Assembly (NCBI GenBank): GCA_038109055.1
Contig: JAYNIM010000002.1
Location: forward strand, 79,759-143,758
From: a bacterium
GTDB lineage: Bacteria; Margulisbacteria; Marinamargulisbacteria; GCA-2716485; JAYNIM01
Length of the DNA stretch: 64,000 nt
Direction: 5' to 3'
Below the pieces are notes generated by a model, which was not told the origin of the DNA, searched no databases, and saw only the letters and a list, made by a program, of their open reading frames with translations. The translations under genes and the position numbers were made by a program. Below, piece by piece: positions 14,791 through 49,732 of this stretch; position 1 is the first letter of the stretch; the number at the start of each line of letters is the position of its first letter.

Positions 14791-17700
14791 TTACGACTCT
14801 CTAATAACAGCCGACATCTCAGAAACACAGCCTAGCAACATAGGCTTGTAAATATGTTGATAATAATCCTTCATCATACGCTGACCAGAAAACTGCATAA
14901 TATGCCGCGCCATCGCCTGTTTCATTTTAGACACCCACGCCTGAGAAAATACCTCTGACTTAGCCCGTTGATAAAACATTGGAAGAATATCTTTTTCTAA
15001 CAAGGTATACAAACGAATCGCATAATCACGTTTTAACAATGCATCACTATGATACTCTTTTTCCACCTGAATACACCAACCAACATCAGAATCAAAGCCT
15101 TCATGCCACCATCCATCTGCTACGGAGACATTCAAAACACCATTTAATGATGCCTTCATCCCACTAGTTCCACTCGCTTCATTACCAAAAACAGGCGTAT
15201 TAAGCCACACATCAACACCTTGAACCATCAACGAAGCCAATTCCATGTCATAATTTTCCAAGACAAAAATATGCCCTTGAAACTCTTCTAACAAGGAAAA
15301 TTGATACAATTTTTGCAAAATAGCCATGCCCGCTTTATCAGCAGGATGAGCTTTTCCTGCAAAAACAAAACGCAGTCCTTTGGAAACCAAACGCTGCAAC
15401 CACAAGGGATTATCCAACAACAAATCTGCCTGCTTATACGTGGCAAAACGTCGAGCAAAACCAACTGTTAACCAGTCTGGATGCAACTTAAAGGACGTCA
15501 CTAAGGCATCTAATTGAGAAAAAGACGTTCCACGCCTAGAATATTCATCCTTCACTCGAGAAGATACCACAGACAAAAATCGCTGCTTCTGCCGACTATG
15601 CGCACGCCAAATATCCCCTAAAGGTGTATTCGTTAATAAGTGAGGGACTTGATAGGTTTGATCTAACAACCCACCATAAAAAGACCGTATATCTGAACCA
15701 ACCCAGGTCAAGGGATGAACTGCATTTGTCACAGCCTGGATAGGTTTATGCTGTACACAAGCCAAACGCTTCCATAATTGGTTCGCCAACTGAACATGTA
15801 ACGTTGAAACTCCGTTATAAGCCCCCGAAAATCGCAATGCAAGAACAGTCATAGAAAATCCATCTTTTTTTGGATCTGTCGCCCAGGCCAAACAATCTGA
15901 AAAAGAAATTCCCATCGCTGGCCAAAAAGAGGATAATGCCCGCTCAACCAAACCAGGATCAAAACACTCAAGACCAGCCGGAACAGAGGTATGTGTAGTA
16001 AAACATGTGTTCATGCGAACTTGATCAATAGCAGATAGCAACGATACATTCTCTTTGCGTAATACACGTAAGCGCTCTAAAATCAAAAAAGCTGAATGCC
16101 CCTCATTCAAATGATACAGTTGTGGGTCAATTCCTAACCTTCCCAACAAACGTACCCCCGCAACTCCTAAAATAATCTCTTGCTTTAAACGCAATAAACG
16201 ATCTGCTGGATACAAAGAGTGGGTTAGGGAACGATCTTCCACAGAATTTTTCGAAACATCAGAATCCAACAAATATAACACACTACGCCCCACTTTAAGC
16301 TGCCAACATTGTAGATAAATCGTCTTATCAAAAAAGGAAAGTGACAATAATTCTTTATCTGAAAACAAGGGCTTCAAATTTAACTTGAGAAGATCTTCCG
16401 TTGTTAAATACTGACCTTGCACACGTTGCAATCCCTTGCCATCAATAGACTGATTAAAATAACCAGATCGATACAACAACCCAACTCCAACCATTGGCAT
16501 GTAAACATCCGAGGCAGATTTTAAAATATCACCTGCCAAAACACCCAAGCCCCCCGAATAAATAGGCAAAAGTGAATGGAGCCCAAACTCCATAGAAAAA
16601 TAAGCAATAGGACACTTAGGATCCATCCCCTCTGGCACATACTCTAAATTTAAATCACACTGTTGAGAATAAGCTTCATCCAACGATTGCAAGTGATGTT
16701 GCATCAACAAACTTTTCAACTTGTATTGCACGCCATCAACATCCACTTGTTTAATAAACTCTAAGGGATTCTCCGAACACCCCTTCCACAACTTAGGCTG
16801 TAAAAGCGCGAAAAAGTCCCCCAGACGTGGATCATAACTCCACCACCAATTAGAGGTCCACTTTTCCAATTGACGCTGCAACCTTTTTCCACTTTTTAAG
16901 ACAGTTTCTTCGCTTGTTTGAACAGCAGAATCTTTCTTAACAACAGACTCCATTGCTTGAGCACAAGAACGGCGTAATTCAGCATGCTTAACAGCATTGC
17001 GATAACAATCTTGATAAGCCTCATAAAACAAAGACCAGTCTGATGCTTCTGCTAAGAGATAAGTCGCCTTTTCAAGAACAGCCCGCTTAGACGATGCTAA
17101 TAAATGATAAAAATGCTGCAACTGCTGCGCCAAAGACGTCAAAGACGTCTGGTAGCAATTCAAGGATCTAGTCACAATACCCAAGGCAATATCATCTTCA
17201 AAATTCTTAGCCCATTGTGCAAAACCACTCGTATCCGACGCAATCGTTGGCACACCCAAGGCTAAACTTTCTTGAGGGGTATACCCCCAAGGTTCATACA
17301 AAGAAGGAAATATCGACAAATCAGACAGGCCTAACAATTGATAATAGGAACATCCATAAAAATGATCATTCCCCTGCAATAACTGAGGCGAATACAATAC
17401 AAAAACTTTTCGATCGATATCATTAGCAAAACGTGATGCTAATAACTTTTGCAGCAAGCCATCTTCCTCAATGGGTAAAAACTCATGCGTCACACACACA
17501 CCTAAGGATGTATTTTCTTCCAATAACGTCTCCCCCGAAAGATAATCCTTCACGTTAGACGTTAACCCCTTCGACAATACAGCAGGTGTTAAAACAAGCA
17601 AAACATCCGCCCCATCAATTTTTTTCACATAAGTATTAAGTGCATCCAAGGCATCCACCAACAAATCAAAACCTTTATTATGACACTCAAAGCGTCCTGC

Positions 17701-34872: not shown

Positions 34873-36618
34873 ATGCTAAAAAACAACGTCATCTATTGGA
34901 AACTTATATTACTCTGCGCAATAATCACTGTTACAACATTATGTTTTATAGCCATTAAAACCCACACATTCATCAGCATAGACACAAAAGTTTACATCAC
35001 AGAAAACCCCTATATCACCTCTTTCTCATTTAAGAATATATCTACCCTAATCAAACCGTATATTTATTGGATGCCTCTCACATGGTTATCATATATGCTT
35101 GATTATCACTTCTTTAAGTTAAATCCAGCCGCTTATCACCTGCATAATTTGCTATTACATCTAATAAACACCGTCCTTGTATTCTTTATAATTAAAAAAT
35201 GTATGTCGCTACATTGGCAAAAAAAAATACCCTCATGGCCCTTATGGACAATTGTAACACTAAGCACCTTATTTTGGGCGATACATCCAATGAGAGTCGA
35301 AGCTGTCGCGTGGGCCATAAACAGAAAAGGCTTACTATCCAGCCTTTTTTTCCTATCAAGCATACTATGTTATTTACACATCACCAAAAAAAATACCCTA
35401 AAGATACTAGGATACACCACACTATTAGGCATAATGGCACTAGCATCCCACCCAAATACCCTAATATTACCCCTCCTATTAATACTACTAGACATTTACC
35501 CCTTAAAAAGAACGAATACCTCTCAACTAGGCCCCCCACTCACTAAAATAACTAATGTAATAAAAACATTTGGCTTACGAATAATAGAAAAAGTTCCCTT
35601 AATAATATGCGCCACTAGCATTAGTATCCTAACCATGATAAGTCAAAGAAACATAGCCGCTATTGCAAACACCAATATACTGACAACAATAAACAATGCC
35701 AGCTATCAATTATGGTTTTATATCAAAGAAACACTCATTAATTTAAATCAAGCACCCATTTACAGTCCCATAAATTTCAACAAACCAACCCCCTTAATCA
35801 TAAGTATTTTTCTTGGATTAACACTCTTAACCTATTACTGCTACAAAAATGTTTCAAACAAACCCTATCTAAGTATCTTAGGCCTATGTTATATAATATG
35901 TTTACTCCCTACCTTAGGCATCATTCAAGCAGGATGGATTACCCATGCAGACAGGTGGTCATATTTAGCCAGTATCCCCGTAATCATCTTCATAACTGGT
36001 CTATTACTAAGATATAGAAAAAGTAACTTAATATTATTAGCCTTTATAGGCTTACTCCTGACTCAAACATACTTTCAACAACAAAAACTTAAATTATGGA
36101 AAGATAATTTAAGCATGTTCACCTATCTATACACACACAATCCACAAAATAATCTTTTCTTCAAAATTAAATACGCACAAGCTTTAATCGAACAAAATAA
36201 GTTATCAAAAGCAAAACAAATCTTAATAAAGGAACGTACAACAAAAAACAAACATCTTAAAGAAGCCATCTACCACTTTCTATATAAAATATCTGAAAAA
36301 GAACATAATACAGCTAATATTATTTTCTATCTTCAAAAATGTATAACCCTCAACCCCCTCTCACACCTAAACATAGAACGATTAGAAAAACTCACGATCT
36401 ACTATAAACAACAAAACAACCCCCAACAAGCCACTGAAAGTCAACAAAAGCTACACATACTTCTTCCAAGAATAAAAGAGCGATATAAAAATAATCCAAC
36501 AATACATATTACCCCCCAATCAAATCGAAAAAATTCAATGTTTAAACATCCTTATACAGGGAATATCTATAGTACACAGGTAAAAAGTGAAAACAAACAG
36601 GTGGTGGAAAAAATGTGA
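34873..36618 (+). CDS. TMTC-like GT-C membrane glycosyltransferase with C-terminal helical/TPR-like region
   Basis: YWMPLTWLSYMLDY, YHLHNLLLHLIN, AIHPMRVEAVAW, ADRWSYL. Confidence 0.8.
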   Translation: MLKNNVIYWKLILLCAIITVTTLCFIAIKTHTFISIDTKVYITENPYITSFSFKNISTLIKPYIYWMPLTWLSYMLDYHFFKLNPAAYHLHNLLLHLINTVLVFFIIKKCMSLHWQKKIPSWPLWTIVTLSTLFWAIHPMRVEAVAWAINRKGLLSSLFFLSSILCYLHITKKNTLKILGYTTLLGIMALASHPNTLILPLLLILLDIYPLKRTNTSQLGPPLTKITNVIKTFGLRIIEKVPLIICATSISILTMISQRNIAAIANTNILTTINNASYQLWFYIKETLINLNQAPIYSPINFNKPTPLIISIFLGLTLLTYYCYKNVSNKPYLSILGLCYIICLLPTLGIIQAGWITHADRWSYLASIPVIIFITGLLLRYRKSNLILLAFIGLLLTQTYFQQQKLKLWKDNLSMFTYLYTHNPQNNLFFKIKYAQALIEQNKLSKAKQILIKERTTKNKHLKEAIYHFLYKISEKEHNTANIIFYLQKCITLNPLSHLNIERLEKLTIYYKQQNNPQQATESQQKLHILLPRIKERYKNNPTIHITPQSNRKNSMFKHPYTGNIYSTQVKSENKQVVEKM

Positions 36619-36670: not shown

Positions 36671-37471
36671 ATGATAAAAACCATACAAAAATATATTATA
36701 TTCTTATTAACACTAACTCTAACAACAAGCATAGCTTTTGCAGGCTGGGATACTTCTAGCTGGATTTATAATAATGGAACCCCAGGAGCTGGAACAGTAG
36801 CCAATGATTCAGAAGTAATTGAAGTAACAGCCTACATAGAAGAAGTAAGTACCCTAGAGTTAAAACCATCTACGGCATTTCATGGCGATGATAGCGGTAA
36901 CACATTCACACCATCAGTAGCATTAGGCGTCTTGGCTCTAGACTCTGAAACAAATCATCCCTACGCAATGATTGAGATACATAACAACAACCCAGTAGGA
37001 TATTCAATAAAAGTAGAATCAGCAGGAAATTGTAAACTTAAAAGAAAGTATTTTGATGGTAGCGCGTGGCAAGAATGGGCAACAAATTCTGACACAGATG
37101 CTAATTTTGCAGCAGGTAACGAAATAGCCTATACTATCTCAACTGAGATACTCGTAACAGGGGCTAATACGGGTGGCTCTCACACTGCCGCATCAGGATC
37201 TTATGATGGATCTAATGCGACTGCGCATGATTCAACAATGTCCGCGATTCATAAAGAAGGTGGAGCAAATAAACATAATCTAGAAGATATGTCTGCAGGA
37301 TCTGCCGGATCACATACCTTTAGCTATGTAGATGGAACTGGAACAGTCAACATCAAACATGGAACATACGGCAAAAGGATCACATTTTTTATGCACGCAA
37401 CTCCAACTAAAGCTAATTTAAGAGGTTTATATAGCGATACCATCACATTTACATTAATAGACGGAGCATAA
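36671..37471 (+). CDS. Secreted pilin-like subunit (putative major fimbrial protein)
   Basis: Signal peptide ending AFA; NNNPVGYSIKVES; C-terminal GLYSDTITFTL strand typical of chaperone-usher pilins; GGGGG RBS. Confidence 0.7.
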   Translation: MIKTIQKYIIFLLTLTLTTSIAFAGWDTSSWIYNNGTPGAGTVANDSEVIEVTAYIEEVSTLELKPSTAFHGDDSGNTFTPSVALGVLALDSETNHPYAMIEIHNNNPVGYSIKVESAGNCKLKRKYFDGSAWQEWATNSDTDANFAAGNEIAYTISTEILVTGANTGGSHTAASGSYDGSNATAHDSTMSAIHKEGGANKHNLEDMSAGSAGSHTFSYVDGTGTVNIKHGTYGKRITFFMHATPTKANLRGLYSDTITFTLIDGA

Positions 37472-37476
37472 AAAAA

Positions 37477-37505
37477 AGGTCTTATCCCCTTTGGGGATAA
37501 GACCT
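37477..37505. terminator. Bidirectional intrinsic terminator
   Basis: Perfect 13-bp stem AGGTCTTATCCCC-ttt-GGGGATAAGACCT between convergent pilin genes. Confidence 0.9.
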
Positions 37506-37509
37506 AAAA

Positions 37510-38163
37510 CTAATCTGAAAGAGTAATAACAAGTCTATCCTTATAATACCCTCTAAGTAATGCAGAATCTAAAACTGGGACATACGCCCAGAAATTTATT
37601 TTTTTATCCACTGTTGCTTCCTTAACCGTCCCCATTAAAGTACCATCATCCGTAAAAAGCATTACAAGGTCCGAAGTCAATTGCTTGCTCGGATAACTAC
37701 CTACAGCATATAAATAATGAGTCTCAATAGTGGTAGGCAAAACCTCATTTAAACCGGCATCTTGCAACCCCAATCGACCCTCGTTTGTTAATTCAAAAGA
37801 GACATAATACGGTACCTCGGCCCCCTTTCCATAGACCCAATCAGTCGTAGAATGATGGGCGTATTCTTTCCACTGACTCCCATCCCAATACTGCCTCAGC
37901 AAACGGCCAGAATTTTCACTATGGATAGTCACAGAAAACCCCCATGGGAAATTACATGAAACAATAAAAGCAAACAATTTTTGATAAACATCACTGTGAT
38001 TAATCTGACCTATATCCAATCCCCCTTGACTAGAATCTATAGATAAAGAATAGTCTGCTCGTACAGACCCCTTTAAAAGGGCTTCCTTTTCAAGGGTAAT
38101 CGAAAAACTAGTCGAAAAAAAAAGAAAATTTAGCAGAAAAACAAAAAATAAGGAATTTTTCAC
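37510..38163 (-). CDS. Secreted pilin-like subunit, paralog of 36671-37471
   Basis: Signal peptide; RQYWDGSQWKEYA matches RKYFDGSAWQEWA; C-terminal LRGYYKDRLVITL. Confidence 0.72.
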   Translation of the reverse strand: MKNSLFFVFLLNFLFFSTSFSITLEKEALLKGSVRADYSLSIDSSQGGLDIGQINHSDVYQKLFAFIVSCNFPWGFSVTIHSENSGRLLRQYWDGSQWKEYAHHSTTDWVYGKGAEVPYYVSFELTNEGRLGLQDAGLNEVLPTTIETHYLYAVGSYPSKQLTSDLVMLFTDDGTLMGTVKEATVDKKINFWAYVPVLDSALLRGYYKDRLVITLSD

Positions 38164-38209
38164 CCATCATTTATAGCATATTTTAAAAAAAAGAGATAGA
38201 ATAGTGATT

Positions 38210-38947
38210 ATGAAAAATATATTAGGTATTACTATATGTCTTTTACTATTAAGTGTACAAATCCTCGCGACAAATGCATCTCTTAGCAGAAAGGAAATCA
38301 ATATAGATTATAACAATTCAACAAAACTAATCTTAACAAACAAAGCAGACGAAATAAAAGCCTTTGAAATATCTCTATATGAACGTAATATAGATGAAAA
38401 AGGTCAAGACATAAAAGTCGACAGCGATATAGAAAATAATTTTTTAATCATTCCCTCTCAAGTAATCCTCTCTCCATTTGGTGAAGAAACCATCTCAATA
38501 ACCTATATAGGGGATAAAAATATTACAAAAGAAAAAGCCTATCATATACTTATAAAACAAATTGAAATTAATTTCGATGAAAACAATACTGAACTCATAC
38601 AAAGATCTAAAGATTCTTTATATGCAAAACTCACAGTCCTAACAAATTTAATAAAAAACATGTACCTTACTCAAAGTAATTTTGAACCCAAGCTAGAGAT
38701 TATCAATAAAAAAATAAATGACCGAACAATGGAAATTGAAATAAAGAATAGTGGCCAAAAACGCTTAATAATGGGGGGAGACAAGCCAAAACTGTTTTTT
38801 CTACTTAAAGATACAGATAATAACATTTTAAAATTCAGAGCCAAAACAGCCATATTATTACCAAACCAAACCTTTAAAAATATTATTGAAATACCAAAAT
38901 CTGTAAATTTAAAAGATCAAGACATTTCATGGGAATTTTCCCGTTAA
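38210..38947 (+). CDS. PapD-like periplasmic pilus chaperone
   Basis: Signal peptide; PSQVILSPFGEETISITYIG...EKAYHILIKQI; IKNSG; ILLPNQT. Confidence 0.75.
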   Translation: MKNILGITICLLLLSVQILATNASLSRKEINIDYNNSTKLILTNKADEIKAFEISLYERNIDEKGQDIKVDSDIENNFLIIPSQVILSPFGEETISITYIGDKNITKEKAYHILIKQIEINFDENNTELIQRSKDSLYAKLTVLTNLIKNMYLTQSNFEPKLEIINKKINDRTMEIEIKNSGQKRLIMGGDKPKLFFLLKDTDNNILKFRAKTAILLPNQTFKNIIEIPKSVNLKDQDISWEFSR

Positions 38948-41737
38948 ATTCACATTAAGATTTCTACAACCTTTTTTATCCTACTAATACCAATCTTCAC
39001 ATTTACCTTTCAAACAAAAACATACGCCCAAAACCAAACTCCTCCTCTTACAAATACCCCCCTTACCCCTGTAAATTCAGAAATAAATCAAGCAACAAAT
39101 CAACTCCCCCCCATCCAAACTCAAGAAAAAAATCCCCCTCAAACAAAGACTCAACCAGAAACAACTCAAACCTCCAATCCAGAAACACCTCAAACTTCGA
39201 ATACAGAAACAACTCAAACAAAACCTCCTTCTAAAAACACCGCTCGTCCCTTAACCAAAGAGGATTATTTAAAGATATTTAAAAAAGCATTTGGCAGTAC
39301 CCCAACTATACGTCAAACAAAAGAAATGGCTCACATTTATATCAACAACAGCAAACAAACTCCTCCCGTAAGAATCCTAACTGAAACATTAAACCCAAAC
39401 ATAAAAATTAAACACGAAGACATCATGAAAATTTTAATTAGGGTATTAAAAAAAGACGTTTTTAATCAACTAAACAAAAATTTACCTATAGATGAAGATA
39501 ACATGATAAACACAGAGGATTTAATCGCCTTAGGATTTAAAATAATTGAATCAAAAAAGCTAAACAAAATTAATCTACTAATACCTGAAAACAATTTGAA
39601 AAAAAAAGAAATAGAAATTAAGACCTCCTCTGCTACCTCCGAAACTGCATTAAGAAAAAAAATAGTCACAAAAGGAAAATACAGTAATTATACAAACATA
39701 ACAATCAAGACAAACTCAAACACCCTTGACAATACTGTCTCAAAAAACAATACGATTGCCTTTCAAGGCCTCTGTAATATTGATAATCTAAAATTACGAT
39801 ACTCAATCAAAAACACAGAAGAAAATACTAAATTACAAGGTGAAACACTGGCATTAATATGGGAAGAATTTAACTCATTCAACATTGAAATCGGTTATAT
39901 AAAAAAAAACCTGTCCTTTGCAAATAATATTAATAATACAATAGCTACAGGCATAGAAATTCGTTCAAAAAAACAACCCCAAAACAACCTGATAGATAAA
40001 ACCATCTCTGTTGACCAAGACAGTAACCTGAAACTCTTCATTAACAAAAAACAAATCGCAAACCTTTATGTAACAAAGGGAAGCACTCGCTTAACAAATA
40101 TTCCATTAACGTCGGGATTAAATAAACTAATTATCAAAAGTTTTGATAAAGATGGTAATTTATTATGGGAAAAAAAAAGTTATGAATTTAAGAATAAAAA
40201 TTCTCACTTTAAATGGATAGGCATAGAAAATTACAGCTTTTTTTTAAATTCAACAAATCAAACGAATACATCCCTTATAGGGTTAACTAGTATGTTTAAC
40301 CTAAATACCCCCTACACGCCTATTATGATATACAACAAAATCTATGAAGATAAAACAAATGAATTAAACTATAAATTTAATTTATATGAAAATACGACAT
40401 TTAAAAGTATCCATATAAACAAAAAAAACCTAAAAGTAAACTCAATTAGTTTATCAAGTAATTACCTCTTTGATAAAAAAACACCCTTCGTTAACAGCAT
40501 ATCTATAGGATCTAGCTTTAATAATAGCAACAATCTTGACACAGCTTCAAATACCAAAACATCCGCATTAACATCAACCCTATCCTTAAAAAAATATAAA
40601 GAGTTTAATCAATCCATATCATATAGCCAAAGCATTCGAAACGAAACAACAAACAAAAAATCAATGTCCCTATTTTATACCATTAATAAAGCAGGAAAAA
40701 AAAGAGAAACATTCTCGTACTCGAATAACCTAGGAATTGCTCTAAATAAAGAACCCTCCGAAGCTTTAAGTCTAAGCCTAACCTTACTAAATGAAGTCAA
40801 AATTAAGCAAAAAAATATCACCTATAGTTTATCCTTAAATAATAATAAATTAAAAGCCAACATTAATTTATTTTGGTATTTCTCAAAAGAAACAAAGTTA
40901 GAAACAACTATTTCAACCAAAGAAATACATAATAACTTTATACATAAAGACACTAAAAATAATTTTAGATTTAATGCAAATGCACAAATAGCATCCTTAA
41001 TTAATCTTAATGCAGGCTTTAGACATAATGATAAGAATATCAATACATCTGGAACATTTCGACAAACCCTTGGAAATTCTGATAGACAAGACACCTTATC
41101 ATTATTCACCCCTGTGGGGTCAATATTTTATGATTTTAATAATACAGAAGACAACCACAACTCTTCCTTAACGTTAACAACAGCCATTGGATTTGCAGAT
41201 GGACACTTCGCAGTAACAGACAAGATCAACAATAGTTTCTTAATCGTCAAACAAGATAAAAAAATAAAAAACACCTCTTTAATTGTAAACAATCAAGCAT
41301 TTAGCCTATTTAATACACACATCATTACCAATCTACAAAAAGAAAAAATAAATAACATATCCATTGAACTAAAAACCCCAGAAAGCTTACTCTTTTTAGA
41401 AAAAACAAATTACGATATCCCTATTAAAGAAAACAAAGGTGAAGTCCTTATCATTAATACGCAAGGAACAAATCTTGCAATCATTACTCTAAAAGACACA
41501 AATAAGCAACCATTAAGATACAAATATATCACTTACTATGAAAAAAATAAGCCCGAAAACAAAATTGACATACTATCGTCTAAAACAGGTAAAATACAAC
41601 TCGTTGGTATTAAAAAAAATACAACCTACATCATCGATTCAAACATACAGAAATTAAAACCAATAGAACTATTTATACCTAGAAATGTGAAAGGAATCTA
41701 CAAAGTACCTGAATTAATATTTAAGGAAAAGAAATGA
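38948..41737 (+). CDS. Outer-membrane usher-like protein (start uncertain; frame open from 38948)
   Basis: Frame of ORF 39326 is open upstream and encodes a signal peptide; plug-like LFINKKQI..LTNIPLTSGLNKL; beta-rich body; TAIGFADGHFAV..INNSFLIV. Confidence 0.7.
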   Translation: MHIKISTTFFILLIPIFTFTFQTKTYAQNQTPPLTNTPLTPVNSEINQATNQLPPIQTQEKNPPQTKTQPETTQTSNPETPQTSNTETTQTKPPSKNTARPLTKEDYLKIFKKAFGSTPTIRQTKEMAHIYINNSKQTPPVRILTETLNPNIKIKHEDIMKILIRVLKKDVFNQLNKNLPIDEDNMINTEDLIALGFKIIESKKLNKINLLIPENNLKKKEIEIKTSSATSETALRKKIVTKGKYSNYTNITIKTNSNTLDNTVSKNNTIAFQGLCNIDNLKLRYSIKNTEENTKLQGETLALIWEEFNSFNIEIGYIKKNLSFANNINNTIATGIEIRSKKQPQNNLIDKTISVDQDSNLKLFINKKQIANLYVTKGSTRLTNIPLTSGLNKLIIKSFDKDGNLLWEKKSYEFKNKNSHFKWIGIENYSFFLNSTNQTNTSLIGLTSMFNLNTPYTPIMIYNKIYEDKTNELNYKFNLYENTTFKSIHINKKNLKVNSISLSSNYLFDKKTPFVNSISIGSSFNNSNNLDTASNTKTSALTSTLSLKKYKEFNQSISYSQSIRNETTNKKSMSLFYTINKAGKKRETFSYSNNLGIALNKEPSEALSLSLTLLNEVKIKQKNITYSLSLNNNKLKANINLFWYFSKETKLETTISTKEIHNNFIHKDTKNNFRFNANAQIASLINLNAGFRHNDKNINTSGTFRQTLGNSDRQDTLSLFTPVGSIFYDFNNTEDNHNSSLTLTTAIGFADGHFAVTDKINNSFLIVKQDKKIKNTSLIVNNQAFSLFNTHIITNLQKEKINNISIELKTPESLLFLEKTNYDIPIKENKGEVLIINTQGTNLAIITLKDTNKQPLRYKYITYYEKNKPENKIDILSSKTGKIQLVGIKKNTTYIIDSNIQKLKPIELFIPRNVKGIYKVPELIFKEKK
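39158..39220 (+). repeat. 24-nt tandem repeat (ETTQTSNP) in usher N-terminal linker
   Basis: gaaacaactcaaacctccaatcca / gaaacacctcaaacttcgaataca / gaaacaactcaaaca. Confidence 0.8.
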
Positions 41738-42540
41738 AATATCTAATACTTATCTCCTGGTTAATTGGAAGTCTCAGCTATGGAACTCTACATCTACACA
41801 TTAAAGATACATTTACAATCGATATCCCGCCAATTAACACCTCTATCACAAAACAAGTGCCTTTATTAATCACGTTTTCTAATATAGAAGAAACCGAAAT
41901 TTTTATCTGTCTCTCTCAAGACAAAAAAAATGATCTCTATTTTCATGATATAAATTCAAATGAATTTAAAGAAAATAAAACAATCAATGAAAAATTAAAC
42001 TTAACCTCCTCATACTCAGCAACCCATATCAATAATACTCACTCATTCCAATACAAGTTACTCAATAATCAAGACACGCCGTTTACATTAAAATCTTTTT
42101 TATTAGCCATAAATAAAGACGATGTCATATCAGGCATCATCACAAAAGATGATATATCTCCAATAAACAGTCATTTCTATGTGAGTATCGATAATATCAA
42201 ACATATTCCCTCCGGAACATACACAGATATTTTCCGAGTGGACTTGTATAAAGGGAGCCTAACAAATAAACTTGACGCAGAACTAATAGAAAGTAAAAGC
42301 ATCAAACTCATATTCAACATCCCAAGCTATACAGAATCAATCATTGAAAAAATCAAAACAACAAAAAACAATCAAACGATATTTATACGCACTAACAGCA
42401 ATGAAAAAATAATAGCTGAATTCAGCTACACTTACAAAAACTCACAAAAATCTATTTTTTTAAATACAGCAAAAGAATCCCATATCATCCAAATACCCCT
42501 CAAAAGTACAGACCCAACTCTCACAATAAAAACACAATAA
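41734..42540 (+). CDS. Secreted protein, putative minor/tip pilin
   Basis: Signal peptide; IPSGTYTDIFRVDLY pilin-like strand; overlaps usher stop. Confidence 0.6.
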   Translation: MKYLILISWLIGSLSYGTLHLHIKDTFTIDIPPINTSITKQVPLLITFSNIEETEIFICLSQDKKNDLYFHDINSNEFKENKTINEKLNLTSSYSATHINNTHSFQYKLLNNQDTPFTLKSFLLAINKDDVISGIITKDDISPINSHFYVSIDNIKHIPSGTYTDIFRVDLYKGSLTNKLDAELIESKSIKLIFNIPSYTESIIEKIKTTKNNQTIFIRTNSNEKIIAEFSYTYKNSQKSIFLNTAKESHIIQIPLKSTDPTLTIKTQ

Positions 42541-42620
42541 ACTTTAAACATGTTTAACCCCTAACCACAAAGGGGTATACCATTCCATGTACACCTAAAA
42601 AAAGAAAATCAAGGAATAAC

Positions 42621-43391
42621 ATGGATCCAACAGTCATTTTTGGTATTATCAGTGGTACCGCTCTATTAATATACGCAATTGGACTAGAAAACGTGATGAC
42701 CATGTTTGTAGATACAAACTCCTTATTAATTGTATTAGGCGGTACATTAGCTGCGACATGTATTCATTTCCCTATGTCACAACTTTCCAAAACAGTTCCT
42801 TGGCTAATGATAACCTTTGCAATGAAAAGAAAAGGCAATAAACATGTTATAGACGAATTTATTGAAGTTGCGACACAATACAAACGCGAAGGCCGAGTTG
42901 GGATGGGGAAGAATATCGACAAAATAAAGGATGGGTTCTTAAGAGATTCCGTTCAATTAATTATAGATAATGTCACCAAAGAAGAAATGCAAGAAATTTT
43001 AGATGCCAACATCAGCTACATGAAACGCCGCCATCAATTAGGCATCGATTTTTTTATGATGGTAGCCACATATTGCCCCAGCTTTGGCTTAGTTGGAACA
43101 TTAATCGGATTAATTGTCATGCTAGCAAAACTAGACGATCCTTCAGCAATTGGCCCCGCAATGGCAGTCGCCTTAATCACCACATTCTACGGTGCCTTAT
43201 TCGCAAACTTTTTATTTATGCCCTTTGCTGGAAGATTAGAAATCTCAAACGAAGAGGAACTATTACAAAAAAACATGCTCAAAGAAGGATTGGTCTGTCT
43301 ACTTGAAGGTCAATCAATTTTCATTATCCGAGAAAAAATGTCCATGGTCCTCTCACAAAAAGATAGAAAAAAAATGAATAAAAAAACATAA
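42621..43391 (+). CDS. motA: Flagellar-type stator subunit MotA/PomA
   Basis: LIVLGGTLAAT, PSFGLVGTLIGLIVML, DDPSAIGPAMAVALITTFYG. Confidence 0.93.
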   Translation: MDPTVIFGIISGTALLIYAIGLENVMTMFVDTNSLLIVLGGTLAATCIHFPMSQLSKTVPWLMITFAMKRKGNKHVIDEFIEVATQYKREGRVGMGKNIDKIKDGFLRDSVQLIIDNVTKEEMQEILDANISYMKRRHQLGIDFFMMVATYCPSFGLVGTLIGLIVMLAKLDDPSAIGPAMAVALITTFYGALFANFLFMPFAGRLEISNEEELLQKNMLKEGLVCLLEGQSIFIIREKMSMVLSQKDRKKMNKKT

Positions 43392-43392
43392 C

Positions 43393-44202
43393 ATGGCTGA
43401 AGGACCTAATTTTTTTGTATCTTGGAGTGATTTAGTAACATTACTATTAGTATTTTTTATCTATTTATTCTCAATTTCATCCATAGACGTCGTAAAATTT
43501 TTAGAAATAAAAAAAAGTATTTGGGGAAGGTACATGGAATACAAACCTGATCAACGCCGCATAAAAGAATCACAAAAAAACAGTGAATTTAAATTAAATG
43601 AACAAAGAAAACGTGCATTATCAGGACCAACAGAAAGATTCACCGTACTAAAGGACTGGAAAAAAACACGAGAGCACATCGAAACATCCACCAGTATACG
43701 AATTGAAACCTTGAAAAAAATAAAGGAACAACAAGAACAACTCATGCTACTAAAAAAAGACTTAGAGAATATGATTGAAAAACAAAAATTAAAATCTCTA
43801 TTTACAGTCGAATATTCTGATATGGAATTAACATTAAGCTTTGGAGACGCTCTATTCTTCAATACAGGTTCTGCATCCATAAAACAAACTGGCGAATCTA
43901 TCAATATCATACTCGCAAACTTATTTAAACGAAACAACAGCGATATCTTTATTGAAGGACATACCGACAATATCCCAATCTACAACAAAAAATACCCCTC
44001 TAACTGGGAACTTTCAAGCGCAAGAGCCTCAGCAGTAGTACGGTCATTAATAGATAAAGGAATAGACCCAGAACGTTTCGCTGCCATAGGCTTTGGCGAA
44101 TTTCAACCGATTGTATCGAACGACAATGAACTTAATCGATCCAAAAATCGTCGAGTAAAAATAATACTAAAACCAAAAAACATACTACCTGAAAAAAAAT
44201 GA
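43393..44202 (+). CDS. motB: Stator subunit MotB/PomB with OmpA-like PG-binding domain
   Basis: SWSDLVTLLLVFF with conserved Asp; EGHTDN, SNWELSSARA, NRRV. Confidence 0.93.
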   Translation: MAEGPNFFVSWSDLVTLLLVFFIYLFSISSIDVVKFLEIKKSIWGRYMEYKPDQRRIKESQKNSEFKLNEQRKRALSGPTERFTVLKDWKKTREHIETSTSIRIETLKKIKEQQEQLMLLKKDLENMIEKQKLKSLFTVEYSDMELTLSFGDALFFNTGSASIKQTGESINIILANLFKRNNSDIFIEGHTDNIPIYNKKYPSNWELSSARASAVVRSLIDKGIDPERFAAIGFGEFQPIVSNDNELNRSKNRRVKIILKPKNILPEKK

Positions 44203-44260
44203 TTAAAACCAAATAATGATGGGAATAACAAAGAATACAAAGTAAATATCAAAAACAAAC

Positions 44261-45712
44261 ATGGAAATATTAGACGATAATAATAATATAAACAAAGAAC
44301 CAACCAACACCACGCCTAACAATAGTGGCGATAAAGAAACTATACCTCCTTCTCAAACAAACAAAATAGTCAAAGATCTTAGCATACAACAATCTAAATT
44401 AAAGAAAATAAAAAATCTTCTAAAAACTTGGAGCGCACATCAAAGAAAGAATATTATATGGGGATTTATTATCGTAAGTGCTCTTAGCGTACTCATAGTA
44501 AACATCCTTCAAGACAAAAAAATTACATTATCAAATTTGGAGAGGGCTGATGAAAGACTCTTAATACAGCGACAACGTCTATTAGAAACACAAATCAAAA
44601 ACGAAATGTCTCATAGCCTAGAAAAAATGTTCGGTCCAAACAATTTCCATGTTGGGGTTATTGCCTTCTTCAGTCTTGTAAATGAAAAAAACAAAGATAT
44701 CTCATACAACCCAAATATAGTCACTATTAACCATGAAATGTACGACAGCTCCCATGAAACAGCTCACCCAGGTCATGAAAAATTATTAGCAATAGCAAGT
44801 CAAAACAACAGACAAAAAATTGAAGAAAATACAATAAATGAACTTCCTGGCATATTTCAAAATATTAACAGATTACCTCAACAAAGTAACCTACCCCAAC
44901 GAATAAATACAACAGAACCTAACACAGAAAACACAAGCTTATTAGATCAAGCAACTGACATAGAACTACCTGGCTTTGAAAATATAAATTTCCAATCTCT
45001 AACAACCCCGTACACATCAGAAACAACCCAAGCCCCCCAATTAATGGAAGAAGGAATAGAAGAAACACATGACGAAAAACAATCCATTCATAAGTTATTC
45101 CAAAATCCAAAAAAAATAGTTAAAACAGAAAAAAAGAAAAATAAAATTATTATGAATCAGACTATATCTATCTCAGAACAACCAAAAGTAAAATTTGAAA
45201 ATTTATATATCTCAGTAGTCATCAATAAAACCATCACAGACAAATTTAACATAAAAGAAAAAGATTTAAGTCGATTTTTAGAAGTCATGGGAGGTATTAA
45301 TCAAACACGTGGAGATAGGTTTAATCTCTCAATTATTCCTTTCAGGGAACAAGTCATAGATATGAGAAGTGCAGGAATTAAAACAAGAAAATTTTTCAAT
45401 AACATTCCTATTTGGGTCTATATCCCTTTATTTGTAATGATCCCATTAGGAATTTTCTTAAAACCCCCCCTATTAAGTCTACTAAAAAATAAAAAGGCAA
45501 AAAAAGAAGAACAAGAAAAAGTAATCCTCTTAGAAAAACAACTTCAAGAAGAAAAACAAATACAAGAGGAAAAAGAATGGAATGAAAAAAGAACCGAAAT
45601 ATTAGAGATGGCACAAAAAAACCCCGAAACCATGGCAAATATTTTATTAGACTGGACTGAACAAGAACTTTCTAATAAAGAAGAAACCCCAGAAACTGAA
45701 AAAGGAGACTAA
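44261..45712 (+). CDS. FliF-like ring protein (RBM3/C-terminal part only)
   Basis: LEKMFGPNNFHVGV, ISVVIN, GGINQTRGDRFNLSIIPF, second TM, C-terminal AQKNPETMANILLDW. Confidence 0.8.
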   Translation: MEILDDNNNINKEPTNTTPNNSGDKETIPPSQTNKIVKDLSIQQSKLKKIKNLLKTWSAHQRKNIIWGFIIVSALSVLIVNILQDKKITLSNLERADERLLIQRQRLLETQIKNEMSHSLEKMFGPNNFHVGVIAFFSLVNEKNKDISYNPNIVTINHEMYDSSHETAHPGHEKLLAIASQNNRQKIEENTINELPGIFQNINRLPQQSNLPQRINTTEPNTENTSLLDQATDIELPGFENINFQSLTTPYTSETTQAPQLMEEGIEETHDEKQSIHKLFQNPKKIVKTEKKKNKIIMNQTISISEQPKVKFENLYISVVINKTITDKFNIKEKDLSRFLEVMGGINQTRGDRFNLSIIPFREQVIDMRSAGIKTRKFFNNIPIWVYIPLFVMIPLGIFLKPPLLSLLKNKKAKKEEQEKVILLEKQLQEEKQIQEEKEWNEKRTEILEMAQKNPETMANILLDWTEQELSNKEETPETEKGD

Positions 45713-45713
45713 A

Positions 45714-46805
45714 GTGGCAAAGAAAAAAGAAATAGTTAAAGAGAAAGAGCAAGAAACAGAAACACAAAGCCAACAATCAAGCTTAGAAAAAGTAGCCATG
45801 TTACTCCTCTATCTTGAAGCAATTTCGCCACAAACAACCAAAGCAATCTACGAACATATAGGAGAAGAAGTCTCCCAAAAAATATTAAACACTATCGCAA
45901 GTTTAGGGAACATAAATAAAACTAAACTAAAACCCATTATAAACGAAGCTCACAATATTTTAGTGGCACAAAACAATATTATTGGAGGACGAAACCTGTC
46001 AGGTAAAATAATTAAAACAATTTTTGGTGATCAAATAAAGGATAACGTAGAAGAAAATAAAAAAAGTAAAGGAAAAGCCTTCGCTTTTTTACAAGACTTT
46101 TCTAATGAAAAATTAATATTATTTTTCGAAGATAATTCCGAAGCAATGGCTGCATTTCTGTTTTCGTTACTATCACAAGACAAAGCCGCAAGTCTCATCC
46201 CATTATTAAAGCAAGAAAAAGCACAACGTATCATGGAAAAGGCCCTTCATTTAAAAATAAATAACATCCCTATTTTATATGAATTAGAAGAAGAATTAAA
46301 AAAAGAATTTTCAAAAACTGAAACAGGTATTCAATTAAAACCAAAAAAACAAATTCAACATTTAACCCAAGTGTTAGAAATGCTAGAAGAAAATCAACGC
46401 ACGGCAATTTTAGAAGAAATGAAAAAAACAAACAAAGAAATTGCAGAACAAATTGAACAAAACATTTTTACATTCCCAGATTTAATAAACTGCAGCGAAG
46501 AAGACATAGCGCAAATTGTAGCAGACATAAAAAATGTAAAAGCATTGGCCTTTGCCACCCATACCTGTGACGAAAAATTAAAAGAAAAATTACTAAATAA
46601 TATCTCTGCACGACAAAAAGAAATTTTAGATGACGAACTAAAAACAATGCCTGAAAACGTAAAAGAAAAAGATATTACAAGCTCACAAAAAGAAATTTTA
46701 AGCATCGCAAGAAAATTAGAAAAAGAAGAAAAAATAGAACCTTTAAGCAAAGGATCAGAAGGAAAAGATAGCAAAGAAAAAAAGGACAAAAGTAAAAAAG
46801 GATAA
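45714..46805 (+). CDS. fliG: FliG-like rotor protein
   Basis: EKVAMLLLYL, IGGRNL, IFTFPDL, NISARQKEILDDEL, SQKEILSIARKLE. Confidence 0.85.
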   Translation: MAKKKEIVKEKEQETETQSQQSSLEKVAMLLLYLEAISPQTTKAIYEHIGEEVSQKILNTIASLGNINKTKLKPIINEAHNILVAQNNIIGGRNLSGKIIKTIFGDQIKDNVEENKKSKGKAFAFLQDFSNEKLILFFEDNSEAMAAFLFSLLSQDKAASLIPLLKQEKAQRIMEKALHLKINNIPILYELEEELKKEFSKTETGIQLKPKKQIQHLTQVLEMLEENQRTAILEEMKKTNKEIAEQIEQNIFTFPDLINCSEEDIAQIVADIKNVKALAFATHTCDEKLKEKLLNNISARQKEILDDELKTMPENVKEKDITSSQKEILSIARKLEKEEKIEPLSKGSEGKDSKEKKDKSKKG

Positions 46806-46826
46806 AAAAATAAAAGGAACAGATCT

Positions 46827-47501
46827 ATGAAAGACACTAAAGAAGAACAATTAACTGCAACTGAAATATATCGGAATTTAGCATTATACACAGCTGACTT
46901 CATATCCATTAATTTTGCGATACCTTTTGATTTAACCAATATTGAAGAAAAAAAAGTAACCTATGAAGAATTTGTCAAACAAGCAGGTTCACTCAGCTAC
47001 ACTAGCCTATTTAATATTTGTGGCCTCCCTTTTTTAGGGTGCATCAATCAAAAAATAATAATCAATCTAAATAACATAATGCTAGGAACCCCAGAAGAAA
47101 TGAAAGAAAGCAAAAAAGAAAACGAAGACGAAGAAGAAAATCTATTAACAGTTGGCCAAAAATTTGTAGGTAAAACACTAAGTACCTGTATAACCAACAA
47201 CATGAAACAACACTATCCATGCAATTTTTTAAAGTCACAAGAAAAATTATCATTATTCAAAATATTTTTTAACAACGATAAAGTCTTAACATTTAACATG
47301 ACAGCAAAAATAAACGACGAAGATATGGGAACATTATCATTTTGCCACATAGAAAATTTTTTCGATTTACTCCCGAATAAATTAGAACAAGAACGGTCTA
47401 GAGAAACAAACACTGAATCCAATGAAAATACAAAAGATGAAGATGAAACAAATACTGAATCCAATATCAATATAAAAGATGAAGATGAAACAAAAAAATA
47501 A
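46827..47501 (+). CDS. FliM middle (CheC-like) domain only protein
   Basis: EIYRNLA...VTYEEFVKQ...NIMLG...LTVGQ pattern; follows fliG; lacks N-terminal LSQxEID and C-terminal SpoA. Confidence 0.6.
   Translation: MKDTKEEQLTATEIYRNLALYTADFISINFAIPFDLTNIEEKKVTYEEFVKQAGSLSYTSLFNICGLPFLGCINQKIIINLNNIMLGTPEEMKESKKENEDEEENLLTVGQKFVGKTLSTCITNNMKQHYPCNFLKSQEKLSLFKIFFNNDKVLTFNMTAKINDEDMGTLSFCHIENFFDLLPNKLEQERSRETNTESNENTKDEDETNTESNINIKDEDETKK
47403..47493 (+). repeat. 42-nt tandem duplication (ETNTESNxNxKDED)
   Basis: Two copies at 47403 and 47445 plus a partial third. Confidence 0.9.
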
Positions 47502-48510
47502 ATTCTATTTAATAATAGCACTACTAACTATACATATATATCTTGTCAGCCCCTTTAGCTGGGCCTCCTCAAATTCAACAAGTATGATTAGCCTACCTAA
47601 TTCAATCAACAAATACAACAGCCCTTTAGAATATGGGATGGGTCTAATTTTTGGCAATGAAAACGATAAAATCACCTACGAACCAGAATGCTTTGCTCGA
47701 ATAATCCTCTTAGAAAAAATAATTTTAAATACCAACATCAGTGATAATAATTTAAAACAAAGCATCCACATAAGCCTCCTATCATACAAAGATATCTCCA
47801 AACCATATACACACAATTTTGGGTTCGGCATCAACAACAGCGGTTGGTACCCTGAACTAGATAACCTTTATAACAGCGTTATAGGCGCATACATAAACTA
47901 CAACCTTGAATACGAATCAATGATTTTTCACCTAGGTCTAGCAAAAAATAAAAACACCCATCAAGAAAAAAACCTCCTCTTATTTGGGATCGAACATTTA
48001 ACAGAGTTTGGAAATGTCGTGCTTGAATGGGACGGAACTCGAGCAAATTTCGGATTCTCCGTAGATCTTATCAAAAACAAAGCCTATATTGGTATTACCC
48101 CCAATCAAAACAAAACCTCACTAAAAAACCAACTATTAACCATAGGATATTCCTGGAAATCTGACCATCTATTTGAAATAGACAAAAAATCTAACAAATA
48201 CAAATCGCAAAAACGAAACTCAAGAAAAAGTTTGAGCATAGGTGCTGCAAGTATTCAAAAAACATTAGAACGCATGGAACGTGGGATGGATCTATACACC
48301 AGAGGATACTACCCATTAGCAAAACTCGAATTAGAAAAAGTAATAGAAATATTTCCAACACCCACAGCTTACAGTCGTCTAGGCTCCATACATTACAAGC
48401 TTAAAGAGTATGACAAAGCATTAGAAAATTGGAATAAAGCATTACAATTAAACCCATCAGACAACAAAGTAAAAGAAATGATAGATTTTGTAAACAAACT
48501 AAAAAAATAA
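47485..48510 (+). CDS. Secreted beta-barrel-like (YjbH-like) + TPR protein
   Basis: Signal peptide; LFGIEH..VVLEWDGTRANFGF; TPR AYSRLGSIHYKLKEYDKALENWNKALQLNP. Confidence 0.7.
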   Translation: MKQKNKFYLIIALLTIHIYLVSPFSWASSNSTSMISLPNSINKYNSPLEYGMGLIFGNENDKITYEPECFARIILLEKIILNTNISDNNLKQSIHISLLSYKDISKPYTHNFGFGINNSGWYPELDNLYNSVIGAYINYNLEYESMIFHLGLAKNKNTHQEKNLLLFGIEHLTEFGNVVLEWDGTRANFGFSVDLIKNKAYIGITPNQNKTSLKNQLLTIGYSWKSDHLFEIDKKSNKYKSQKRNSRKSLSIGAASIQKTLERMERGMDLYTRGYYPLAKLELEKVIEIFPTPTAYSRLGSIHYKLKEYDKALENWNKALQLNPSDNKVKEMIDFVNKLKK

Positions 48511-48511
48511 A

Positions 48512-49732
48512 ATGAAAAAAATAATCGTCATCTGTTTGATCATATTACAAATAACCATTAACAAAGAACTATTAGCTGCAGCCTTTGGGCCAGCAAAGTC
48601 TCTAATCAATGTCCCTATCGCAGAATACTTCATACCCGGAGATCTAGAGTTCTCTACCAATGCTGGGTTTGGATCCATGCAAAATTTAGAATTCGATTTC
48701 AAGTTTCAATATAGCCTCACAAAAAAAATTAATATAGGGGCAACAATCATCAATTATCATCAAATGGTATTCAATGCACAAACAACCTTTGTAACATTAA
48801 GTGACCCCTTTCCTATCACAATTTCTGCCGGCATACTAAACTTATCGTCTAAACTAGATTTGAGTGATTGGGATAATGAAACAGCACAAAAAATACATAA
48901 TTTAGGTCACTTTATTGTATGCAGCTTACCTAAAAAAGCCTATACCTTACACATCGGCTTAGGCAAAAAAAAATATCGAACAGAATCAATCAACTCAACA
49001 CTAGAAGAAGCCTCAAGTGCATTTATAGGCACCTTATTTTTTGGAATAGAAAAATCAATCAAGAATGGATCATTAATGGCAGAATTCGATGGTAGTTATA
49101 TGAACGTTGGCTATAGAAAAAAGTTAACAAAAAAAACCACAGGAAGTGCAGCATTAACAGAGTTTGGAAATACTGGCAAAGATGCCCCTGTACGATTTCT
49201 ATCCTTCAATATCAAAACAGCTAAAAACATCTTTGAGGCTTACAAAGAAGAAGTAGAGTATGTACAGAAAAACCTAACAATCATCGAAGACATCTCATTA
49301 AACTTAAAAGAAACCGAAAAAAAACTAAAAAAAGAATTAATTAACACACAAAAAATTAAAGAAGCCTTATTAAAAAAAGTAAATGAAAATCCTTCAGAAA
49401 AAAAAATAAATAGAAAAGACCCTCTTCAAATGTACTCAAACAACTACATTCAAGCCTACAAACATTACGAAGACTCATTTAATAGTTTTAATCAACAAAA
49501 TTACTTAAGTGTTTTAGAATCACTGACTAAAGCAATACAAGCAGCCCCTGATGTTCCCATATTTTACAGACAGCGTGGCACAGTGTATTACATAATAAAA
49601 CAAGAAGAAAATGCTCTCCTTGACTGGACAACTGCCTATGAACTAAACCCCAGAGACCCAGAACTATTAAAGTTACCAAAATCAGTGTTAACTGAAATCA
49701 TTTCACGCGTAAAAACCTATCCACTAGAGTGA
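48512..49732 (+). CDS. Secreted beta-barrel-like (YjbH-like) + coiled coil + TPR protein
   Basis: Signal peptide; LINVPIAE; FFGIEK..LMAEFDGSYMNVGYR; TPR FYRQRGTVYY..ALLDWTTAYELNP. Confidence 0.72.
   Translation: MKKIIVICLIILQITINKELLAAAFGPAKSLINVPIAEYFIPGDLEFSTNAGFGSMQNLEFDFKFQYSLTKKINIGATIINYHQMVFNAQTTFVTLSDPFPITISAGILNLSSKLDLSDWDNETAQKIHNLGHFIVCSLPKKAYTLHIGLGKKKYRTESINSTLEEASSAFIGTLFFGIEKSIKNGSLMAEFDGSYMNVGYRKKLTKKTTGSAALTEFGNTGKDAPVRFLSFNIKTAKNIFEAYKEEVEYVQKNLTIIEDISLNLKETEKKLKKELINTQKIKEALLKKVNENPSEKKINRKDPLQMYSNNYIQAYKHYEDSFNSFNQQNYLSVLESLTKAIQAAPDVPIFYRQRGTVYYIIKQEENALLDWTTAYELNPRDPELLKLPKSVLTEIISRVKTYPLE

Follow-up and report, generated by a model that had tools for sequence, protein, structure and literature searches.

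Seven genes beside a chaperone-usher pilus cluster may encode an export-less derivative of the flagellar motor in a marinamargulisbacterium

We analysed a 64,000-nucleotide stretch of contig JAYNIM010000002.1 from a bacterium of the Marinamargulisbacteria (G000:C2:79759-143758, hereafter the window; G000 is the window's own genome and C1, C2 and C3 are its contigs, other G numbers denote genomes of the phylum set, and L numbers denote extracted loci used for coordinates). In the window, a chaperone-usher pilus cluster (36671-42540) is followed by a block of seven motor genes (42621-49732). We suggest, with a little less than even confidence, that the block encodes a free-standing relative of the flagellar motor without export parts, likely an ion-driven FliG ring that passes force to outer-membrane partners and would, in place of a propeller, pull or turn a load at the cell surface, with the pilus a possible load. 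What was read from sequence are the components, the domains they have lost, how they stand apart from the export system, and their conservation and selection; function is inferred from these throughout. The assembly of G000 comprises 1.82 Mb in 22 contigs (93% complete, 0.19% contaminated); most of the stretch is present in three sequencing runs of one estuary study, one of which may be the source, and an assembly artefact was rejected, as all 30 bins were covered by two other runs (of the same study as the possible source).

An earlier note on this DNA had described a tight co-directional run beginning 80 nt past a tip gene, and this holds: the block consists of seven intact open reading frames (ORFs) in one direction, separated by gaps of 1, 58, 1, 21, -23 and 1 nt, and motA starts 80 nt after the end of the tip gene. 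A terminator scan found no plus-strand terminator between the tip gene and motA, which counts for the link to the pilus, and promoter-like sites did not exceed those in shuffled sequence (48 vs 54). The genes of the block are as follows (TPR, tetratricopeptide repeat; RBM, ring-building motif).

42621..43391, plus strand: MotA/PomA-type stator subunit (Pfam MotA; Lys88/Arg89 kept, Gly96 at the Glu98 position, Thr160/187/188, Asp31)
43393..44202, plus strand: MotB; essential Asp present (Asp13), wall anchor of OmpA type (Pfam, alignment)
44261..45712, plus strand: FliF-like ring protein with two transmembrane helices, RBM3, an enlarged collar (about 170 residues) and a FliG-binding tail, without RBM1/RBM2
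45714..46805, plus strand: full-length FliG (Pfam N, M and C domains; torque-helix charges present)
46827..47501, plus strand: FliM-like protein, middle domain only (FliM-family profile)
47479..48510, plus strand: barrel-TPR protein 1, with a signal peptide, a barrel predicted for the outer membrane and a TPR region at the C-terminus
48512..49732, plus strand: barrel-coil-TPR protein 2 (predicted barrel of 12-13 strands, 52-residue helix, TPR)

MotA, MotB and FliG, as the earlier note had named them, were identified by Pfam matches, and its FliF-like and FliM-like assignments were borne out by profile alignments. The window MotA scored as MotP/PomA at E 1e-55 or better and as TolQ only at E 4e-4, and its best solved relatives were flagellar MotA and PomA (E in the 1e-40 range). 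In the MotA alignment, Lys88 lies opposite E. coli Arg90 and Gly96 opposite E. coli Glu98. Mapped by motif position, Thr160 (kept in 10/10 module MotAs), Thr187 and Thr188 match T158, T185 and T186 of the PomA sodium site, and Asp31 likewise matches a residue of that site; the PomA residues, these threonines included, are described in PMC10374538. The window stator is probably sodium-driven, of the PomAB/MotPS type. The essential Asp of MotB was kept in 10/10 module MotBs. A profile of 13 FliF-like proteins aligned to Salmonella FliF over residues 231-558 only (E 1e-20), which comprise RBM3, the collar, the second transmembrane helix and the FliG-binding tail; the FliF-like gene gave no match to PF01514, and RBM1 and RBM2 were not covered by the alignment. 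Since the export gate of Salmonella FliF is held by the RBM2 core (PMC8270960), a ring of the FliF-like protein would be expected to do without export gate and rod. Arg300, Asp307 and Glu308 of the window FliG align to E. coli Arg281, Asp288 and Asp289, and the position of Arg281 is R or K in all 14 module FliGs aligned (what these torque-helix residues do is described in PMC7564593). A profile of 21 FliM-like proteins matched the FliM middle domain alone (E 4e-11), and 16 of the 21 family members, the window's own protein not among them, gave a Pfam FliM match. Neither the N-terminal CheY-binding segment nor the FliN-binding domain was seen in the FliM-like protein, and no FliN is encoded in the motor block.

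FlhAB, FliPQR and FliHIJ are also absent from the motor block and are encoded elsewhere in the genome. The earlier note had recognised no export or axial genes; this stands within the 64-kb window and not genome-wide, where flhA, flhB, fliPQR, fliHIJ and rod and ring genes were found. On the same contig, about 60 kb downstream, are flhA, flhB, fliR, fliQ, fliP, fliO, fliN and fliM (C2:188-197 kb, L031); fliF, fliE, flgB, flgC, flgF, flgG, flgA, flgH, flgI and fliK are on C1 (511-521 kb, L032), and fliH, fliI and fliJ on C3 (112-115 kb, L040). A full export and axial set elsewhere, with the window's as its only motor genes, would have refuted the proposal of the earlier note. What we found instead was an export set with its own FliF (PF01514), FliG, FliM and FliN, apart from the window's block, and flagellin, FlgK, FliD, FlgD, CheW and methyl-accepting chemotaxis proteins were not found in the 93% complete assembly (one sub-threshold FlgK match was the start of FlgG). 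The FliG of the export set has no torque domain (no FliG_C), and its FliF keeps RBM1/2 and is without a collar. The collar region of export-type FliF, with lengths read by eye from printed segments, was about 3-20 residues long in 6/6 proteins examined vs 80 and 106 in flagellar FliF.

The losses of the export FliF and FliG are complementary to those of the module, and an optional motor add-on could be envisaged that docks on a filament-less export basal body, its collar-bearing FliF-like protein co-assembling with the collar-less FliF and its full FliG restoring torque to the rod. Such docking, a serious alternative that we nevertheless consider improbable, would agree with the finding that in Salmonella only 23 of the 34 FliF subunits contribute to the inner ring (PMC8270960), with the P and L rings kept in the export body, with the position of fused-type modules in G101 and G025, where they adjoin genes for export or the rod, and with an export system that may be present in every module-bearing genome. 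However, the export-type FliF is collar-less in genomes with or without motor modules, the export system already has a FliG, FliM and FliN of its own, and there would be no need for three divergent modules in a single genome, all having barrel partners. Similar fusions may also occur outside the phylum: protein-language-model neighbours of the fused rotor fell in clusters in which Cloacimonadota, Elusimicrobiota, Bdellovibrionota, Bacteroidota and Balneolota predominate, of which the Elusimicrobiota, Cloacimonadota and Balneolota clusters count against docking (these are clusters and not genomes, and a lead only).

A survey of the phylum bears on the same question. Among 146 genomes, 72 of them good, FlhA was present in 131 (70 of the good ones), FliG_C in 64 (29), flagellin in 15 (11), and the FliM-like protein, taken as a marker for unfused modules, in 30 of the 146. 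At least 41 of the 72 good genomes have FlhA without FliG_C, again contrary to docking, and MotB_plug was matched in none of five near-complete FlhA genomes that were chosen for having no FliG_C match, two of which are single-contig. Conversely, each of the 13 genomes with flagellin and a canonical FliG has two flhA genes plus extra FliG_C paralogues. In four of these 13 (G061, G066, G069 and G071), all seven genes of the block recur together as a single run, in addition to a canonical FliG and flagellins, so that the conservation of the block expected in the earlier note is found in relatives; a fifth (G068) has five of the seven, without motAB. The occurrence of FlhA in genomes without motor genes, together with the module beside a canonical flagellar motor, indicates that the export body needs no motor and that the module would not be the motor of a flagellum.

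These data also speak to whether the block holds displaced motor genes of an ordinary flagellum, with the filament genes missing from the assembly, or a decaying remnant. An incomplete assembly of 22 contigs, and the export, rod and ring genes of G000, would be in line with this, yet of the 55 class genomes only one yielded flagellin, from a contig of 2 kb, the missing filament and chemotaxis genes include FlgK, FliD, FlgD, CheW and methyl-accepting chemotaxis proteins, and flagellated relatives keep a separate canonical fliF-fliG-fliH-fliI operon in addition to two flhA genes. The ratio of nonsynonymous to synonymous substitution rates (dN/dS) was 0.05-0.22 over 12 motor-gene pairs from G009, G011 and G013, a related genus and hence relatives of the window genome rather than the window locus itself; controls gave 0.04-0.14 (n = 3) and the tip gene 0.46. 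Values so far below 1 make random decay unlikely, as the earlier note had argued. The explanation is largely refuted and in our view very improbable, and both decay and an ordinary split flagellar operon were rejected. By sequence, the module is conserved under purifying selection in relatives, some of which have a complete flagellum.

G000 has three paralogous stator/FliG modules, the block in the window being the first. The second (C1:38.1-43.2 kb, L039:6153-11248) is an unfused six-gene module for FliF-like, FliG, MotA, MotB, FliM-like and barrel-TPR proteins, and the third (C2:148-152 kb, L034:5011-9051) encodes a TPR protein, a FliF/FliG fusion, MotA and MotB. The repurposed motor of the earlier note thus stands as a conserved, selected module separate from the export system, and the single motor it assumed has to be replaced by three. 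Among the 20 best FliG loci, a FliF-like gene was present in 16, four of them with the FliF-like protein fused to FliG, suggesting that module FliG pairs with the module's FliF-like protein; a barrel-TPR gene was present in 16/20. Module FliGs and MotAs branched apart from the flagellar ones in trees. Further searches returned little of the module: protein searches gave 2 and 10 homologues among about 8,000 candidates scored, a single-protein genome scan gave seven deltaproteobacterial motAB loci, none with another module gene, and a metagenome scan gave one 2.2-kb contig with motA, motB and a fliF-like gene in the window's order.

An usher was present in 26/55 class genomes, and its surroundings were examined in all 26. 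Module genes lie within a few kb of the usher in eight of these, representing five families (G000, G032, G046, G050, G009, G011, G013 and G022); in G032, G046 and G009 the motor genes are intermingled with those of the pilus, and in the other five the two sets are adjacent. The pilus-linked TPR2 proteins form a clade (5/5, support 96/93), four of five pilus-linked FliF-like proteins group together (support 91-95; quick tree, Shimodaira-Hasegawa-like approximate likelihood-ratio test 91), and the window FliG groups with that of G032 and the second FliG of G009, G011 and G013 (support 95/94). Grouping of the pilus-linked TPR1 proteins was weak (support 73), and pilus-linked MotA and MotB formed no clade in the trees. 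G009 and G032 each carry a second, pilus-free module on other branches. As read from the trees and gene orders, the pilus link is one old linkage kept through rearrangement within one clade, in several gene orders, and does not have several origins.

The same linkage could have arisen if the module were an independent ion-driven machine of the envelope, serving transport or release through the barrels, tension or load sensing, and the pilus genes were co-regulated neighbours inherited from one ancestor. We regard this as a serious alternative, although an unlikely one. Most modules occur without a pilus and most pili without a module, whereas the barrel-TPR genes are constant partners (the 16/20 loci above); fused-type modules in G062 and G072 precede large secreted-type proteins instead of pilus genes, some rotors carry SLH domains, and chaperone-usher assembly is not known to need an ion gradient. 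On the other hand, the pilus linkage has outlasted several rearrangements, interleaving included, over the five families, and a geared FliG ring would be costly for a job done by ExbB/TolQ-type motors, genes for which G000 has.

Several observations weigh against our proposal of a stand-alone motor with the pilus as a possible load. The torque-related parts were said in the earlier note to be kept and the export and switching parts lost; this is so at the level of domains, and fails at one residue, as the rotor-contact Glu98 is not kept in the window MotA (Gly96) and is Glu in 5/10 module MotAs. MotAB adjoins FliG in only 8/20 loci, and the complementary domain losses of module and export system would fit a hybrid machine as well. 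Free rotation is not assured, since the wall-binding SLH domains of the G030 and G072 rotor fusions could pin the rotor. As for the pilus, no motor gene was seen in the neighbourhood of 18/26 ushers (on several contigs the sequence stops a short way from the usher), five of the 26 usher-bearing genomes have no FliG_C match, the linked motor genes are fragments in G046 and G050 while the pilus genes persist, and the FliG and FliF-like proteins of G022 lie outside the pilus-linked clade. Because the link has a single origin, its recurrence is not repeated independent evidence. The coupling put forward in the earlier note is therefore retained as a linkage in one clade, found in eight of 26 usher-bearing genomes, decayed in two of the eight and not seen in the other 18.

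If the stand-alone motor is taken as a working model, the FliF-like protein would likely build a ring of its own from RBM3 and the collar. Wall-anchored MotA5B2 stators, probably sodium-driven, would probably turn the FliG/FliM ring in one direction, with no chemotactic switching. As such a motor would lack both export gate and rod, its force would have to be passed on via the collar; there is perhaps an even chance that this enlarged collar couples to the TPR arms of both barrel proteins in the periplasm, the barrels replacing rod and bushing as the output. In the pilus-linked clade, this output might move, twist or tension the pilus or its usher for attachment to surfaces or a host, a step that is plausible although doubtful and is the weakest of the model. 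More speculatively still, the phylum may have split a flagellar ancestor into a torque-less secretion basal body and export-less geared motors, one clade's motor driving a chaperone-usher pilus, which would be the first ion-powered rotating or retracting pilus of its class.

Like the flagellar motor core, the module has homologous MotA and MotB, a three-domain FliG with the torque helix, the RBM3 and collar of FliF, and the middle domain of FliM. Unlike it, the window's module is without RBM1/RBM2, FliN or a FliN-binding domain, a CheY site, an export gate, rod, hook and filament, and adds two outer-membrane barrel-TPR proteins, with up to three paralogous modules per genome. Non-flagellar 5:2 ion motors include ExbBD-TonB, TolQR-TolA, AglRQS, GldLM and ZorAB. 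The window's system resembles these in a predicted ion-driven stator that would work on envelope or surface proteins; to our knowledge, a gear ring of FliG and FliM mounted on a FliF-type ring occurs in none of them. SpoIIIAG is a sporulation channel for which we know of no FliG-binding tail or stator. Its ring of RBM3 plus a long beta-barrel collar resembles the S ring of FliF (PMC8270960), indicating that the RBM3/collar half can form a ring alone. In Buchnera, flagellar parts were kept and reused after loss of flagellin, and motA and motB were lost while the export half was kept (PMC8109811); the separate export system of G000 resembles these basal bodies, whereas the window's module is their mirror image, a motor half without export.

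The earlier note knew of no described system of this composition, and a full-text literature search, which left most subscription papers outside its reach, likewise found no paper describing such a module. The word stem 'flagell' does not occur in the main texts of two Margulisbacteria papers (PMC6349859 and PMC6784892; main texts only). On its composition and distribution, the module appears to be new in kind, with no precedent found. The FliG gear ring is generally treated as specific to the flagellum, and chaperone-usher pili as passive fibres. If the proposal is correct, a FliF-RBM3/FliG/FliM/MotAB unit that persists without export gate or filament, even in cells that have a complete flagellum, would represent an envelope machine of a new kind; with only five to seven genes, the module would be a minimal motor provided by nature, and it opens a direct test of whether the motor and export halves of the flagellum evolve and work separately.

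The pilus cluster upstream of the motor block contains the following features.

36671..37471, plus strand: major pilin-like subunit of chaperone-usher type with a signal peptide (fold match, family alignment)
37477..37505, no strand: perfect 13-bp hairpin, terminator-like, between the convergent pilin genes (sequence)
37510..38163, minus strand: second pilin paralogue (24% identical to the first pilin, same family)
38204..38947, plus strand: pilus chaperone, CsuC/EcpB-like (profile of 12 homologues: CsuC E 2e-5, EcpB E 4e-3)
38954..41737, plus strand: outer-membrane usher (profile of 11 homologues: FimD E 1e-6)
41734..42540, plus strand: candidate tip or minor pilin (homologues come after the usher in relatives; one has a weak SCPU match, E 2e-3)

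The AlphaFold2 model of the first pilin, of moderate quality (predicted local distance difference test, pLDDT, 60), had CFA/I CfaB as its best fold match (E 6.6e-4), followed by Csu, CupE and Caf1; at the sequence level it gave no match in the PDB. The chaperone additionally gave weak PapD_N and TcfA matches, and Pfam Usher was matched in 5/11 usher homologues, the window's own protein not being one of these. In its Ig-type pilin fold, CsuC-like chaperone and FimD-like usher, the cluster resembles archaic and alternate chaperone-usher pili (Csu, CupE, CFA/I, Ecp), and by these matches, all of them remote, it is a genuine chaperone-usher set. We know of no chaperone-usher system that has motor genes or is ion-driven. 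The pilin, chaperone, usher and tip genes of the earlier note were thereby upheld; its co-directional cluster was not, as the second pilin lies on the minus strand behind the strong hairpin. The sequence around the reversed pilin gene showed no inverted repeats of the kind expected for a phase switch.

The usher frame opens with ATT at 38954 and a signal-peptide-like start, its first ATG coming only at 39326, and a contig from another run is identical over 38355-39055, across this start. The ATT codon (38954-38956) directly follows the chaperone stop in the same frame, and could possibly be a rare start codon that limits usher levels. Three 24-nt repeats (window 39155-39219) encode a Thr/Gln/Pro-rich linker in the usher N-terminus, which the G032 usher does not have. 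A third, orphan pilin-family gene is located away from the usher cluster (G000:C1:381175-381849).

Barrel-TPR protein 1 is a paralogue of barrel-coil-TPR protein 2 over its full length. The predicted model of protein 2 (pLDDT 74) matched 12-stranded outer-membrane barrels and TPRs in Foldseek, the sole basis on which its nearest fold is given, and the barrel-coil-TPR proteins are predicted to be long enough to extend into the periplasm. In G071 and G072, the rotor protein itself has a TPR domain of this type, inserted in its periplasmic portion. Complex prediction for the periplasmic part of the FliF-like protein with the TPR1 domain scored 0.01 against a mark of 0.32 and was not used for or against binding. 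Despite a resemblance to YjbH-type barrels, PF06082 was unmatched in 17 barrel-TPR1 members and in both window proteins. A relative of barrel-TPR2, 64% identical, was found in a eukaryote protein set labelled COSAG05, which we take to be a protist single-cell assembly; for a host association of the window bacterium this is only a hint.

Fused-type modules differ in their rotor domains and in their neighbours. The rotor fusion of G030 has SLH inside the collar, that of G072 has SLH plus TPR ahead of RBM3, and that of G071 has TPR ahead of RBM3 (L062:6793-9270, L101:6750-9485 and L104:7737-10304 for G030, G072 and G071, respectively). In G101 (L109:3096-15000), a FliF/FliG fusion, MotA and a MotB with LysM replacing OmpA lie directly upstream of export genes. 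The modules of G062 and G072 precede secreted-type proteins of 2,594 and 3,250 residues (L098:11464-19248 and L100:10152-19901) with Ig-like or Kelch repeats, and at both loci two tandem FliG-domain genes precede the large proteins.

Within the rod cluster of G000, FlgC-, FlgB- and FlgF-like proteins open with hydrophobic, signal-peptide-like segments, unlike textbook rod proteins (L032:10806-11674 and 16218-17024). Two stand-alone, short FlgE/F/G-like genes of 287 and 269 aa (L041:8215-9078 and L042:7929-8738) lie far from that cluster, the former preceded by three large unknown ORFs. In the window, directly upstream of the first pilin, a gene at 34873-36618 encodes a multi-pass membrane protein with a C-terminal TPR-like region and no Pfam match above threshold, which resembles protein glycosyltransferases.

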